Origin: Patescibacteria group bacterium
GTDB taxonomy: Bacteria; Patescibacteriota; Patescibacteriia; UBA2591; UBA6264
NCBI GenBank assembly: GCA_028713575.1
Contig: JAQTOB010000003.1
Location: 40,350-72,349 of the forward strand
DNA length: 32,000 nt
Reading direction: 5' to 3'
Part shown: piece after piece, positions 4,259-7,541 of the stretch
Layout: each line of letters starts with the position of its first letter
Numbering within the stretch: position 1 is the stretch's first letter
The notes under the pieces: generated by a model
Told to the model about the DNA's origin: nothing
Databases searched by the model: none
What the model saw: only the letters and a program-made list of their open reading frames with translations
Made by a program: the position numbers and the translations under genes

Positions 4259-4485
4259 TTTTTTAAAAGAAAATAAATCAATTAAACGTGGACAAATAAT
4301 TTGATATTATTTATAATAAAAAAATAGTGATAAATGTTTTATATCTCTATTTTTTAAAATTTAAAATTTAAACATGCGGATAAGCATTGACGCTTGTCCC
4401 GACACTAAATCTACGGATTAGTGTGGAACTTCGCTGTTTTGGAAAGAACAAGGCCTTATGGCATAAATTTTTAATCTTAACAAAT

Positions 4486-5010
4486 ATGCGGATAGGTATT
4501 GACGCTCGCTTCTTAGGACTTAAGGTTGGAATTGGGCGTTACACGGAAAAATTAATAGAACACTTAGAAAAGAATGATAATCAGAATGATTATTTTATTT
4601 TTGTTAAAAAACAGAATTTCAACCTCTATTGTCCAACCAATAAGAGATTTCATAGAGTTTTGGCTGACGACCAATGGTATTCGTTCAGGGAACAAATATT
4701 TTTTCCCCACCGGCTTTATAAACAAAGACTGGACTTAGTGCATTTTCTTCATTTTAATGTTCCTTTACTGTATTTTGGAAAATTTATTATAACTATTCAC
4801 GATTTAACACAAAGAAATCTAACCAAAGAAGCAAGCAAACGGCCTTGGCTATTTTTTCTATTTAAAAAGGCGGCCTATCGGCTGATCATATGGAGCGCTT
4901 TAAGGAGGGCCGAAAAGATTATCACAGTATCCAATTTTACTAAACAACAAATAATTAAATATTATAACGTGAATCCCGAAAAAATATCAGTTGTTTATGA
5001 GTCCTGTTAA
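4486..5010 (+). CDS. Glycosyltransferase family 4, N-terminal domain fragment
   Basis: MRIGIDARFLG...GIGRYT...HFLHFNVP...ITIHDL...VSNFTKQQI...VVYE is a GT4 N-terminal Rossmann domain. It stops at TAA 5008-5010, where the interdomain linker should continue. The track extension 4387-4485 is not credible. Confidence 0.7.
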   Translation: MRIGIDARFLGLKVGIGRYTEKLIEHLEKNDNQNDYFIFVKKQNFNLYCPTNKRFHRVLADDQWYSFREQIFFPHRLYKQRLDLVHFLHFNVPLLYFGKFIITIHDLTQRNLTKEASKRPWLFFLFKKAAYRLIIWSALRRAEKIITVSNFTKQQIIKYYNVNPEKISVVYESC

Positions 5011-5077: not shown

Positions 5078-5632
5078 ATGAATCAGCATAAAAAAAACAA
5101 CCCTTACTTACTTTACGTGGGCAACTCCTGTCCCCATAAAAATCTTGAACGTTTACTTAGGGCTTTTAATGTTGTTTCAAAAGAAATTTCCGATTTGAAT
5201 TTGATTTTAGTGGGCAAAATAGATTATTTTTATAAAAGAACACAGAAACAGGCGGAAAAATTAAAATTAAGTAACAAGGTGATATTCGTCGGCGAATTGT
5301 CAGACGAAGAATTAAACAAGGCCTATCAGGACGGTTTGGCCTATGTTTTTCCTTCTTTGTCCGAGGGGTTTGGCCTACCTGGCTTGGAAGCAATGAAACA
5401 AGATTTACCAGTAATCAGTTCAAATAAAGAGCCTTTGCCTGAAATTTACGGTCAGGCGGCGATTTATTTTAATCCTGAAGATATCCAGGACATGGCTAAA
5501 AAAATTTTAGAAGTTGTTACCAATGGCCCTTTAAGAGAGAGGTTGAAGATTTTAGGAAAAAATCAGGTAAAAAAATATTCTTGGAACAAGTGCTCTAAGC
5601 AAATATTAGAAATTTACAAGCAGATTTTATAA
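5078..5632 (+). CDS. Glycosyltransferase family 4, C-terminal (Glycos_transf_1) domain fragment
   Basis: YLLYVG....KNLERLLRAF...LILVGK...FPSLSEGFGLPGLEAM is the GT4 C-terminal catalytic domain. It is in a different reading frame from the N-terminal fragment. Confidence 0.7.
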   Translation: MNQHKKNNPYLLYVGNSCPHKNLERLLRAFNVVSKEISDLNLILVGKIDYFYKRTQKQAEKLKLSNKVIFVGELSDEELNKAYQDGLAYVFPSLSEGFGLPGLEAMKQDLPVISSNKEPLPEIYGQAAIYFNPEDIQDMAKKILEVVTNGPLRERLKILGKNQVKKYSWNKCSKQILEIYKQIL

Positions 5633-5778: not shown

Positions 5779-6267
5779 TTATAATTTTTCAGTCCCGATC
5801 ATTTTTGGCTCAAAATTTTCATGCGTTAATTTTGAAACGGGTTGGATTGATTTAGACAATTTTTCCACATAATGGTATTGCCATTTTTTTTCTTGTTTAA
5901 AAAATTCTTTTTTCCATTTATTAAACTGTTTCTCTTTTAACCCATATAAGCGACCATCAAGGGCCGGAATAATAATTTTTTTGATTACTTCTCTTTTTCG
6001 GACCAATAAAACAATTTGATGTCGTCGGATAGAAGTTTTTGTTTTATCTTGATATTCATATTCATAAATAGATTCTTTTAGGCCTAGACTATTTTTAAGG
6101 GCAAAAAGAAGCTTTTTATCATTATGGCGCATTCTAATTTGGAAAACGGCATTTTTTGAATTTTTATTACCATAAGTCCAGCTAAAATATCCATTTTCAC
6201 AAATTAGGCCGGCAATAAAATCAAAAGAAAGGTTTTTAACATTTGTAATATTGGGAATCTTTGACAT
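5779..6267 (-). CDS. Free-standing single-motif LAGLIDADG homing-endonuclease-like protein
   Basis: 162 aa. FDFIAGLICENGYF matches the LAGLIDADG helix. Downstream pattern (FQIRMRHNDKKLLFALKNSLGL...IIIPALDG..LYGLKEKQFNKW) is typical of the family. Confidence 0.75.
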   Translation of the reverse strand: MSKIPNITNVKNLSFDFIAGLICENGYFSWTYGNKNSKNAVFQIRMRHNDKKLLFALKNSLGLKESIYEYEYQDKTKTSIRRHQIVLLVRKREVIKKIIIPALDGRLYGLKEKQFNKWKKEFFKQEKKWQYHYVEKLSKSIQPVSKLTHENFEPKMIGTEKL

Positions 6268-6406
6268 AAGATATGTTTATTTAGGAATGTTCCTCGCGGA
6301 ACATTTCGTTATACAGTATAACAAAATTAAGAAATAAAGTAAATAGATAAATCAATAATATCCCTTTTTAATAATATATTATTAGCGTCGTAAATTATAA
6401 ATAATT

Positions 6407-6900
6407 AATGCGAATTATCTTTAAAAACCAATTTTACGAATGGTTTTTACATTATATAGGGGCACGAGTTTAATATAATGGTTATAATGTGAGCCTTTAA
6501 TTAAACCTATATTATATAAGCAGGCCAAAGCTCTCATGGGGCCAGTTCCCTAAAAGTAGTCAAAATAGTTCTAAATTTAAAAAATCCTTCTAAAACGCTT
6601 TACTGATAAGACTTTTAGAAGGGTATTTTGGGGGGACAGTCCCCTTTTTGAATAAATGCGAATTATCTTTAAAAACCAATTTTACGAATGGTTTTTACAT
6701 TATATAGGGGCACGAGTTTAATATAATGGTTATAATGTGAGCCTTTAATTAAACCTATATTATATAAGCAGGCCAAAGCTCTCATGGGGCCAGTTCCCTA
6801 AAAGTAGTCAAAATAGTTCTAAATTTAAAAAATCCTTCTAAAACGCTTTACTGATAAGACTTTTAGAAGGGTATTTTGGGGGGACAGTCCCCTTTTTGAA
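6407..6900. repeat. Perfect tandem direct duplication, 2 x 246 bp separated by 2 nt (period 248)
   Basis: 6407-6652 and 6655-6900 are identical by eye at every position. Confidence 0.95.
6630..6649 (+). terminator. Intrinsic-terminator-like hairpin at the end of repeat unit 1 (same element at 6878-6897)
   Basis: GGGGA-CAG-TCCCC stem-loop directly followed by TTTTT. Confidence 0.45.
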
Positions 6901-6948
6901 GAAAGTCTCTTTTTTAAAGAAGCCCCGAGCGAGGCGGCTGATTTAATA

Positions 6949-7223
6949 TGGTGGACTTAGGCAGAATTGAGCTGCCGTCTCCGCAACTCGCTCCGTTAGA
7001 AATTTAGTATGTGAATCACCGCGCCAAATTCTTAAATAGATAATTCCATTTTATTTTGAAAGCACTTACAATAATTAGAAGTATAGATTTAGTGTAGGAG
7101 TGGACTCGACGAGAATCGAACTCGTATTTCCGCAATGCGAATGCGGTGTACTGCCGTTGTACTACGAGCCCTAATTTTCTAACGGGGTGAAAATGCGGCG
7201 CACCACTGCTGTACTATAAGCCC
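6949..7223 (-). other. Interrupted tRNA-Ala-like gene: 5' half 7223->7187, 3' half 6986->6949 with encoded CCA, ~200-nt intervening segment
   Basis: The halves pair 7/7 in the acceptor stem (GGGCTTA/TAAGTCC, G3.U70) and 5/5 in the anticodon stem (CCGCA/TGCGG). T arm is GGCAG-CTCAATT-CTGCC. The intervening segment is bounded by inverted repeats at 6993-7007 and 7171-7185. Confidence 0.6.
7101..7171 (-). tRNA. tRNA-Ala (anticodon CGC)
   Basis: GGGCTCG/CGAGTCC acceptor with G3.U70, CCGCA-TTCGCAT-TGCGG anticodon arm, ACGAG-TTCGATT-CTCGT T arm, discriminator A. No encoded CCA. Confidence 0.85.
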
Positions 7224-7253
7224 ATTTGTCAAAATAAAATAAATTTTTATCAA

Positions 7254-7327
7254 TGCCCCCGGAAGGACTCGAACCCTCAGTCTTTCCCTTAGGACGGGAC
7301 CGCTCTAATCCATTGAGCTACGGGGGC
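7254..7327 (-). tRNA. tRNA-Arg (anticodon CCT)
   Basis: GCCCCCG/CGGGGGC acceptor, GCTC/GAGC D stem, loop GTCCTAA, GAGGG-TTCGAGT-CCTTC T arm. One G.A mismatch at the top of the anticodon stem. Confidence 0.75.
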
Positions 7328-7394
7328 TTAGTTCTTTTTCGTTTTGCATTGGAGCCCTGAGGGGACAAATAGCCAGCCCGGAATAATCAATTTA

Positions 7395-7541
7395 TTATTT
7401 TATAAACAACTCAGCTAAATTTAAAAGGAAGTCGGTTTGAGAATCAAATATAAACAAAACAATCAAGATAGTGAGCATAAGGGCCACAACAAAGAGAATT
7501 TTTTTAAATTCTTTTTTTACATTTTTTTGTTCATTTTCCAT
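7395..7541 (-). CDS. Possible 48-aa single-pass membrane peptide (hypothetical)
   Basis: ATG...TAA ORF, MENEQKNVKKEFKKILFVVALMLTILIVLFIF..., with one hydrophobic helix. Below the ORF-track size cutoff and no homology recognised. Confidence 0.3.
   Translation of the reverse strand: MENEQKNVKKEFKKILFVVALMLTILIVLFIFDSQTDFLLNLAELFIK

Follow-up and report, generated by a model that had tools for sequence, protein, structure and literature searches.

In bacteria, tRNA genes are normally viewed as uninterrupted, save for rare group I introns. Intervening sequences (IVSs) are known from bacterial 23S and 16S rRNA genes, as in Salmonella, Leptospira, and Coxiella. The tRNA introns of archaea appear to move between tRNA genes (archaeal cases are summarized in PMC10714607), and bacterial group I introns in tRNA anticodon loops (10.1101/2020.01.27.920355) share the interruption site of the locus reported here. 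This locus lies in a stretch of 32,000 nucleotides from a Patescibacteria group bacterium (contig JAQTOB010000003.1, positions 40,350 to 72,349 of the forward strand; hereafter, the window), which consists of approximately 33% G+C bacterial DNA with one 16S rRNA gene. On the minus strand of the window, a tRNA-Ala-like gene is split in its anticodon loop by a cassette that contains a second, complete tRNA-Ala(CGC). We refer to this arrangement as a nest, to the split gene as the outer or resident gene, and to the contained gene as the inner tRNA. We think it likely that a resident tRNA-Ala(CGC) was killed by an inverted repeat (IR)-bounded cassette that brought a replacement tRNA with it, and that the outer halves are a relic. 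Full-text literature searches, the coverage of which was incomplete, returned no account of one tRNA gene lying within another in bacteria; as an earlier, sequence-only reading of the window had supposed, such nests are apparently undescribed.

Structure of the nested tRNA-Ala(CGC) locus

The nest region was base-for-base identical across independent JGI and Logan assemblies, and this agreement excluded an assembly artefact. The features of the region, in the direction of the minus strand, are as follows.

7254..7327, minus strand: tRNA-Arg(CCT) (ARAGORN; Rfam, 58.8 bits), directly upstream of the nest and serving as the synteny anchor
7194..7223, minus strand: outer (resident) tRNA-Ala(CGC) 5' half, with the acceptor 5' strand, D arm, and anticodon-stem 5' strand
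7171..7193, minus strand: 5' junction TTT and cassette 5' arm TCACCCCGTTAGAAAATTAG (arm, 7171-7190), from an inverted-repeat search
7101..7171, minus strand: inner tRNA-Ala(CGC), intact, CCA not encoded (ARAGORN; Rfam tRNA, 65.2 bits, E=3e-12)
7008..7100, minus strand: cassette internal spacer of 93 nt, from a read of the sequence
6988..7007, minus strand: cassette 3' arm CTAAATTTCTAACGGAGCGA, pairing with the 5' arm at 17/20 positions
6949..6986, minus strand: outer 3' half, with T38, the anticodon-stem 3' strand, variable loop, T arm, acceptor 3' strand, and ACCA
6916..6935, minus strand: terminator-like hairpin and T-rich tail, directly past the outer 3' end

A direct read of the sequence found both halves of the tRNA-Ala-like gene, including the ACCA end, where the sequence-only reading had placed them on the minus strand, and confirmed the pairing that it had described: the outer halves pair at 7/7 positions of the acceptor stem, including G3:U70, and at 5/5 positions of the anticodon stem. 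The inner tRNA-Ala(CGC) that it had predicted was recovered by both ARAGORN and Rfam, and CCA is indeed encoded by the outer and not by the inner gene. The outer 5' half continues as TTTTCAC, the cassette 5' arm abuts G1 of the inner tRNA, and GT separates the 3' arm from the outer 3' half proper (6985-6949). The inverted repeat was present and abutted G1 as described, and its extent was greater than the 15 nt first given, with 20 nt on each side (6988-7007 and 7171-7190; 85% complementary). When joined, the outer halves were called as a tRNA by ARAGORN at default thresholds over a range of junctions. The unconstrained minimum free energy (MFE) structure of the 278-nt stretch was predicted to contain two nested cloverleaves and the IR helix, with a z-score of -3.06 and 0 of 200 shuffles folding as well; the helix that had been proposed to clamp the two halves together therefore forms in this model.

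Within the spacer of the cassette, a second, degenerate version of the 3' arm occurs at 7075-7092, and what remains of a pair of element ends (TTTGGCGCGGTGA followed directly by TTCAC) occurs at 7011-7028. This spacer stretch is absent from the closest relative, L143 (L followed by three digits labels the other collected loci), in which the inner tRNA and the 3' arm are just 5 nt apart. Downstream of the nest, the motif gcctcgctcggggcttc of the hairpin also follows the tRNA-Ala(CGC) of the relative L002, and the hairpin at 6935-6916 is the putative terminator of the resident gene. Upstream, the tRNA-Arg(CCT) gene probably shares a transcription unit with the nest.

The resident gene in syntenic relatives

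Syntenic loci were gathered via the adjoining bactofilin and LAGLIDADG genes. The shared gene order was bactofilin, tRNA-Arg(CCT), phosphoribosyltransferase, tRNA-Ala(CGC), LAGLIDADG, and a glycosyltransferase block, from which the phosphoribosyltransferase gene is missing in the window and L143; the Arg(CCT)-Ala(CGC) order also occurs in L046, L143, L150, L153, and L159. The empty site that the sequence-only reading had proposed to seek was found in L046 and L153, where the outer-type gene is uninterrupted and canonical (Rfam, 61 and 66 bits, respectively). In the closest relative, L143 (bactofilin 87% identical), the nest of the window is present as a compact version. L150 and L159 have the same resident gene, interrupted in L150 by a different inner tRNA-Ala(CGC) with different arms, CCCGCCTAAATTTTA / TAAAATTTTGGCGGG, and in L159 by a third cassette, the arms of which are TCCTTCACTTAT / ATAAGTGAGGG. 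In L148, all that is left of the resident gene is its 3' half, downstream of a further intact tRNA-Ala(CGC), and L003, L020, and L070 have the inner-type tRNA of the window, a decayed arm, and the 3' half of a different resident type, with no 5' half. The masked region of L003 was read from the unmasked copies L020 and L070.

Runs of N were observed adjoining tRNA-Ala(CGC) genes in L003 (4868-4962) and L152 (about 372-381).

In an identity matrix, the outer 3' halves matched the intact residents at 31-34 of 34 positions, and the inner 3' halves matched the residents at 22-24 of 34; the outer half of L143, for example, was equal to L046 and that of L150 to L153. The outer 3' half of the window was identical to the intact L046 gene at 31/34 positions and to the 3' half of its own inner tRNA at just 22/34, and the outer 5' half was identical at 25/30 positions to both the L046 gene and the outer half of L143. 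Because the outer 3' halves match the residents far more closely than the inner ones do, the outer gene is taken to be the resident, and the inner gene to have arrived with the arms. The outer and inner genes belong to different lineages by their 3'-half identities and are therefore not products of a local duplication. The sequence-only reading had taken the compensatory pair changes at 6:67 and 7:66 as a sign of selection on the outer gene, and these changes are more simply explained by different tRNA-Ala(CGC) lineages. Within these few relatives, cassettes have entered the resident gene on three or more occasions, and comparison of empty and filled orthologous sites shows that the nests originated by insertion.

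Recurrence across Patescibacteria

A search with a degenerate pattern for the tRNA 5' half collected 64 metagenome loci, many of them from groundwater samples rich in Patescibacteria. Nests were tallied by hand, because automatic detection based on resemblance to the inner tRNA is conservative and overlooks layers that have diverged, and approximately 18 of approximately 56 distinct tRNA-Ala(CGC) loci had nested or relic architectures. In L016/L047/L064 and in L024 there are three levels, with two successive 5' halves, each ending in the junction motif, before an intact tRNA-Ala(CGC). The outermost layers of these loci are visibly more decayed than the inner ones, as would be expected of layering that proceeds from the inside. 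An additional orphan 3' half is present in L063, and no 3' halves were found within 0.4-3 kb in L016/L047, L026, L035, and L014.

Other isoacceptors are also nested in halves of their own kind, namely tRNA-Val(CAC) in L008, tRNA-Pro(UGG) in L013, L044, and L049, and tRNA-Lys(CUU) in L152. In L008 (6000-6290), tRNA-Val(CAC) lies within the anticodon loop of a paralogous Val-like gene with arms CACCCCGTTAAAT / ATTTAACAGGGTG; the D loop of the outer Val copy carries a further insertion of approximately 105 nt, and the whole Val nest is situated approximately 40 nt downstream of a nested tRNA-Ala(CGC). tRNA-Pro(UGG) is found between Pro-like halves in L013 (3640-3880), L044 (3575-3810), and L049 (6480-6740), near-identical genomes that have the inner tRNA-Pro and the 3' half in common and two wholly different 5' halves. 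In L152 (540-760, minus strand), tRNA-Lys(CUU) lies in a second tRNA-like gene whose acceptor stem pairs at 7/7 positions and whose T arm is intact; the flanks are a direct repeat of approximately 33 nt, corresponding to the segment from the D loop to the anticodon loop, and not an inverted repeat. The energy of the flank-to-flank duplex was -25 to -35 kcal/mol for nested tRNAs, compared with a median of -12.6 for 110 tRNAs. Such tRNA-in-tRNA nests are recurrent across Patescibacteria, and this recurrence is shown by the independent cassettes in the same resident gene together with the nests in other isoacceptors.

L152 comes from the same metagenome as the genome of the window.

Decay and conservation of the outer copies

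In the outer copy of the window, G18 is lost or changed to A (D loop AGTGGTA to AGCAGTG), and the T loop has changed from TCCGATT to CTCAATT. In L143, a change of G10 to A breaks a D-stem pair and CCA is lost; in L150, the anticodon loop and the fifth stem pair are gone, and an additional IR element lies within the 5' half. In the L159 copy, G2 has become A, the anticodon 3' strand is mutated, and 66 nt have been inserted into the T loop. The deletion in L025 runs from C36 to the T loop, and the orthologs of this locus (L010, L030, L033, L037, L057, and L069) are intact behind the same upstream flank. By these changes, no split copy is free of lesions that should be intolerable in a working tRNA, and decay of the outer copies is shown. 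The inner tRNA differs between the window and L143 at 6/72 positions, 4 of which form two compensatory pairs, 6:67 and 13:22; these pairs indicate that the inner tRNA evolves as a working gene, which it is presumed to be.

The intact free-standing tRNA-Ala(CGC) genes of the clade (L046, 3744-3817; L010; L051) have the T loop UCCGAUU or UCCAAUU, in which position 55 is C instead of the nearly universal U (pseudouridine 55), and a palindromic D stem (GUAC/GUAC). In the outer copy of the window, a change of C55 to U coincides with that of G18 to A.

Several points weigh against the killing of a resident gene by a cassette, with the outer copies as a relic. Four-fold degenerate sites are 42% identical between the window and L143 and are thus saturated, and the outer halves are identical at 56/64 positions and the arms at approximately 84% (outer helices and arms overall, 84-91%). 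All 8 outer substitutions between these two loci are located in the D arm or T loop, with 0 in the acceptor, anticodon, and T stems; if substitutions were evenly spread, the chance of all 8 avoiding the stems, worked out by hand, would be (26/64)^8, or approximately 7e-4. A purely neutral ancestral relic should have decayed far more, and the conservation therefore needs either selection on the helices or recent horizontal spread. The changes of G18 to A and C55 to U in the window could represent a compensating tertiary pair, and the outer copies of L050 and L054 are flawless except for the loop and keep CCA. For the cassette of the window, no mobilizing enzyme, target-site duplication, or excision product was identified, and the host relationships between loci were judged by one or two proteins only.

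Selection on the outer helices may be one explanation of the conservation between the window and L143. Since the outer 5' strand can pair at 6/7 positions with the inner 3' acceptor strand, it is plausible that the outer halves must stay mutually paired. Covariation in the IR helix, which the sequence-only reading had suggested examining, was seen as one compensatory double change relative to L143 (C-G to T-A). The conservation may otherwise reflect recent, separate entries of related cassettes into residents that still worked. Both explanations fit an origin by insertion, and they differ on whether the outer RNA still matters.

Tests for introns, split tRNAs, and tmRNA

An intron-containing tRNA and a split tRNA released by RNase P and RNase Z had been put forward as explanations by the sequence-only reading. 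A cmscan search of positions 6300-7450 against Rfam at E<=10 returned no group I or group II intron, no other intron family, and no ribozyme. A search for transfer-messenger RNA (tmRNA) with ARAGORN -m was negative, and the sole Rfam tmRNA signal was a partial beta_tmRNA match of 9.2 bits against a gathering score of 84. With introns of up to 3 kb allowed, the intron mode of ARAGORN did not find the outer gene in the native sequence, and at a relaxed threshold it gave spurious Leu and Pyl calls only. No junction among 480 combinations gave an Ala anticodon; the ARAGORN trials yielded CGA, UGA, UUA, and UUC on an Ala-type acceptor, in agreement with the earlier statement that no splice choice gives UGC or GGC. 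Because the 3' junction pentamer (CGAGT, CGAAT, CACGT, CGGGT, or CAAGT) varies among homologous nests, no particular anticodon appears to be maintained.

A bulge-helix-bulge (BHB) motif, with two 3-nt bulges and a 4-bp helix, was ruled out by inspection of the junctions at 10 loci. The junction in the window consists of the anticodon stem, an internal loop of approximately 6x5 nt (UUUUCA / CGAGU), and then a helix of 10-20 bp. Compact homologous cassettes (L017, L054, and L143) are only approximately 105 nt long. With no group I core, no BHB geometry, and no junction that provides an Ala anticodon, the intron-containing tRNA was not upheld, and the split tRNA was not supported as a decoding molecule; a clamped, two-piece, non-decoding RNA is a separate reading that is weighed below.

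Arms, hairpin elements, and candidate mobilizers

Pairs between arms were counted by script; a MAFFT alignment of the arm pairs shifted registers. The arms fell into at least five sequence families, in which 11-12 of 12 pairs were formed with the arm's own partner and a mean of 6.4 of 12 with arms of other families. The 5' junction motif TT(C/T)ACCCC(G/C) was present in L008, L014, L016, L017, L026, L035, L050, L054, and L063, and the motif CGGGG(C/T)GA(G/A) was present on the 3' side of many junctions. A reading of TTCACC...TAGAAAAT as a promoter was rejected, in that the hexamer-like elements are approximately 4 nt apart rather than 17 and a promoter listing contained no such site.

Copies of the arms also occur without a tRNA. 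At the 3' end of the L148 relic (1190-1260), there is a 20-nt hairpin, CCCCGTTAGAAGTAACGGGG, flanked by a TCCA direct repeat, and an IR element of approximately 85 nt within the L150 tRNA relic (1395-1510) has a 9-10-nt direct repeat, GGCCTGTAG, at both sides. A stand-alone hairpin in L057 (9137-9470) is made up of the arm motif TTCACCCCGTTAGA / TCTAACGGGGT(G/A)A, which also closes the 3' ends of a GIY-YIG nuclease open reading frame (ORF) and a four-helix-bundle ORF, both assigned from motifs by eye, unscanned. One four-helix-bundle ORF of L057 resembles, on the same by-eye and unscanned reading, the '23S rRNA IVS protein' type. The arm-flanked ORFs of L057 lie just upstream of a 1838-aa ORF that begins with an intein/Hint C-terminal motif. 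The GIY-YIG endonuclease was rejected as a mobilizer, its arm-flanked gene being present in L057 only among the collected loci.

The cassette of the window resembles a miniature inverted-repeat transposable element (MITE) in its terminal inverted repeats, its short length, and the presence of related arms at many loci and in hairpin-only copies. No direct repeat flanks it, no direct-repeat attachment (att) sites are present at the insert, and no transposase was identified. It also encodes no integrase, since the only ORF of at least 25 aa in the 200-bp insert is a 39-aa frame overlapping the tRNA. A scan of viral contigs for ACCCCG-N(6-24)-GGGCTNNTAGTA gave 66 stretches, all of which were chance matches in coding sequences, with no nested tRNA. 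The insertion point lies after position 30 in L150, 33 in the window, and 35 in L024, L025, L026, and L159, and nucleotides of the anticodon loop are variably lost; because of these differences, the insertions look more like break repair than precise transposition.

A LAGLIDADG ORF of 162 aa (5779-6267, minus strand), with a single motif and a Pfam score of 22.9 bits against a cut-off of 23.1, is situated 0.7 kb downstream of the nest. Its homologs (41-70% identical) were found 0.7-3 kb from tRNA-Ala(CGC) in three neighborhoods, those of the window group, of L012/L036/L062, and of L038. In the window group, the LAGLIDADG gene is always beside a block of glycosyltransferase, methylase, S6, SSB, S18, and EF-P genes, and it is simply syntenic, adjoining both filled and empty tRNA sites.

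Between the outer 3' end and the LAGLIDADG gene, the window contains a perfect 248-nt tandem duplication (6403-6650 and 6651-6898, 100% identical). The near-identical JGI contig L072 has one full and one partial copy of this unit, and several other assemblies break at the duplication. A glycosyltransferase of the window is encoded by two adjoining ORFs, the N-terminal (GT4) at 4387-5010 and the C-terminal (GT1) at 5078-5632, and this split is also present in relatives.

Discussion

Of the explanations offered by the sequence-only reading, that of a gene killed by an IR-bounded, tRNA-carrying mini-element was supported by the uninterrupted gene in L046 and L153, the three cassettes in relatives, and the lesions in every split copy. 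In the mechanism that we propose, a cassette of approximately 200 bp with IR arms would insert into the anticodon loop of a resident tRNA-Ala(CGC), bringing a complete tRNA-Ala(CGC) of a different sequence lineage. Transcription would probably start at the promoter of the resident gene, placed upstream of tRNA-Arg(CCT), and end at the terminator of that gene (6935-6916), and RNase P and RNase Z would be expected to free the inner tRNA as the new working tRNA-Ala(CGC). The outer halves would never be rejoined for decoding and would form a relic held together by their own stems and the arm helix; these helices may persist by preventing the outer halves from mispairing with the inner tRNA. Spread of the cassette may be homing-like, with a donor that already has a nest recombining via its outer halves, possibly aided by a break in the palindromic anticodon stem-loop, or it may occur by MITE-like transposition. 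Homing-like recombination is favored because every nest is cognate-in-cognate.

The same origin by cassette would also permit the outer halves and arms to be a functional RNA today, either a scaffold or a non-decoding, alanine-accepting tRNA-like molecule, with RNase P and RNase Z, and perhaps RNase III as for rRNA IVSs, freeing the inner tRNA while the outer pieces stay clamped. The retention of outer halves (56/64) and arms (approximately 84%) between the window and L143 despite four-fold sites at 42%, the confinement of all 8 outer substitutions to positions outside the stems, and the compensatory arm change are as this explanation would predict, as are the covariation of the arms across at least five sequence families, the nested structure of the MFE fold, and the CCA kept in the window, L050, and L054. 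However, many lineages have lost one half (the 3' half in L014, L016, L026, and L035; the 5' half in L020, L070, and L148), and L159 and L025 carry gross lesions, which argues that the outer RNA is dispensable; recent horizontal spread of cassettes into still-functional residents explains the conservation equally well, and we regard a present function as rather unlikely. A more far-reaching proposal, that nest units are functional composite RNA genes and not scars, is also unlikely. Here an inner tRNA would be combined with a clamped two-piece tRNA-Ala-like RNA (G3:U70, CCA, and an extended 'anticodon' helix) kept by selection because it donates alanine or acts as a regulator outside the ribosome, or because it is a scaffold required for folding, and the cassettes would be new self-propagating 'replacement' elements that home to the cognate anticodon loop.

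Two explanations dispense with the killing of a resident gene by a cassette. Local tandem duplication and partial deletion of one tRNA-Ala gene would account for the paralogy of the halves and the intact gene, for the series of 5' or 3' halves in L016 and L063, and for the perfect 248-nt tandem duplication close by. It leaves the inverted-repeat arms unaccounted for, the outer and inner genes were of different lineages in every nest examined, and close relatives have one and the same resident gene interrupted by three different inner tRNAs, the arms of which also differ, so that very little probability attaches to it. A genuine intron-containing or split tRNA, in which the arms join the halves and an endonuclease and a ligase yield a decoding outer tRNA, would agree with the placement of the insert in the anticodon loop, with an arm helix that brings the halves side by side, and with one junction choice in the nested tRNA-Val of L008 that restores the loop TTCACAT and hence Val(CAC). 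Against it stand the lack of a match to a group I intron or other ribozyme at E<=10, the 6x5 internal loop in place of two 3-nt bulges 4 bp apart, the failure of ARAGORN intron mode to find the outer gene, and the decay of outer copies in relatives. The possible anticodons (CGA, UGA, UUA, and UUC) are moreover placed on an acceptor of Ala identity and vary between loci, and this explanation seems to us scarcely credible.

With the killed resident gene as the favored explanation, a tRNA gene would be repeatedly overwritten from inside by small cassettes with the same tRNA, in up to three nested layers. If general, this would be a previously unrecognized route of tRNA gene turnover and horizontal exchange in Patescibacteria, and it would give rise to relic tRNA halves that are overlooked or wrongly called in pipeline annotation. 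The nest also offers a natural system for the processing of a tRNA embedded in a paralogous tRNA. The tRNAs of ultrasmall archaea that are split or contain introns thereby gain a counterpart in bacteria, which bears on the long-standing debate over how tRNA introns and split tRNAs originated.

Comparison with known systems

Integrative elements and islands that target tRNA genes, including those at an anticodon-loop sublocation, share with the nests the tRNA target, the restoration of function by incoming sequence, and the fragments of the resident gene left as relics. Whereas such elements extend over kilobases, carry an integrase gene, and contribute no more of the tRNA than its 3' part, the cassettes described here are 100-200 bp long, have IR arms and no recombinase gene, carry a whole tRNA, and displace both halves of the resident gene. 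The archaeal BHB tRNA introns, including the mobile ones of Thermoproteales, and the split tRNAs of Nanoarchaeum have the same position in the anticodon loop and complementary flanks that join the halves. The nests differ from them in the bacterial host, the lack of BHB geometry, the lack of a sensible anticodon after removal, and the decay of the outer copies. They differ from bacterial group I introns in having no catalytic core, the insert consisting of a tRNA and two arms with compact forms of approximately 105 nt. MITEs and small palindromic repeats are likewise short and non-coding with terminal inverted repeats, and hairpin-only relatives of the arms occur in L148 and L150; unlike MITEs, the cassettes have a functional tRNA as cargo and the anticodon loop of the cognate tRNA as their site, with no target-site duplication at the tRNA cassettes.

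The rRNA IVSs are, like the cassette of the window, short IR-bounded inserts in a structural RNA gene, placed at the apical loop of one of its helices, with repeats that extend the host helix, and, like the nests, they are sporadic among close relatives. The window has such an IR-bounded insert and an extended stem, with arms that pair at 17/20 positions and are formed in the MFE structure, and a further link is provided by the arm motif TTCACCCCGTTAGA..., which flanks small ORFs in L057, one of them IVS-protein-like by eye. However, an IVS leaves the host rRNA functional as fragments, whereas the nests have destroyed the anticodon loop, on which the function of the host tRNA centers; the decay of the outer copies in relatives argues against a retained host function of the IVS kind. 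The cargo also differs from that of an IVS in being a complete replacement tRNA. We read the nest as a mobile element inserted into a tRNA gene whose function it replaces, and it is distinctive in being recurrent, layered, and cognate-specific.

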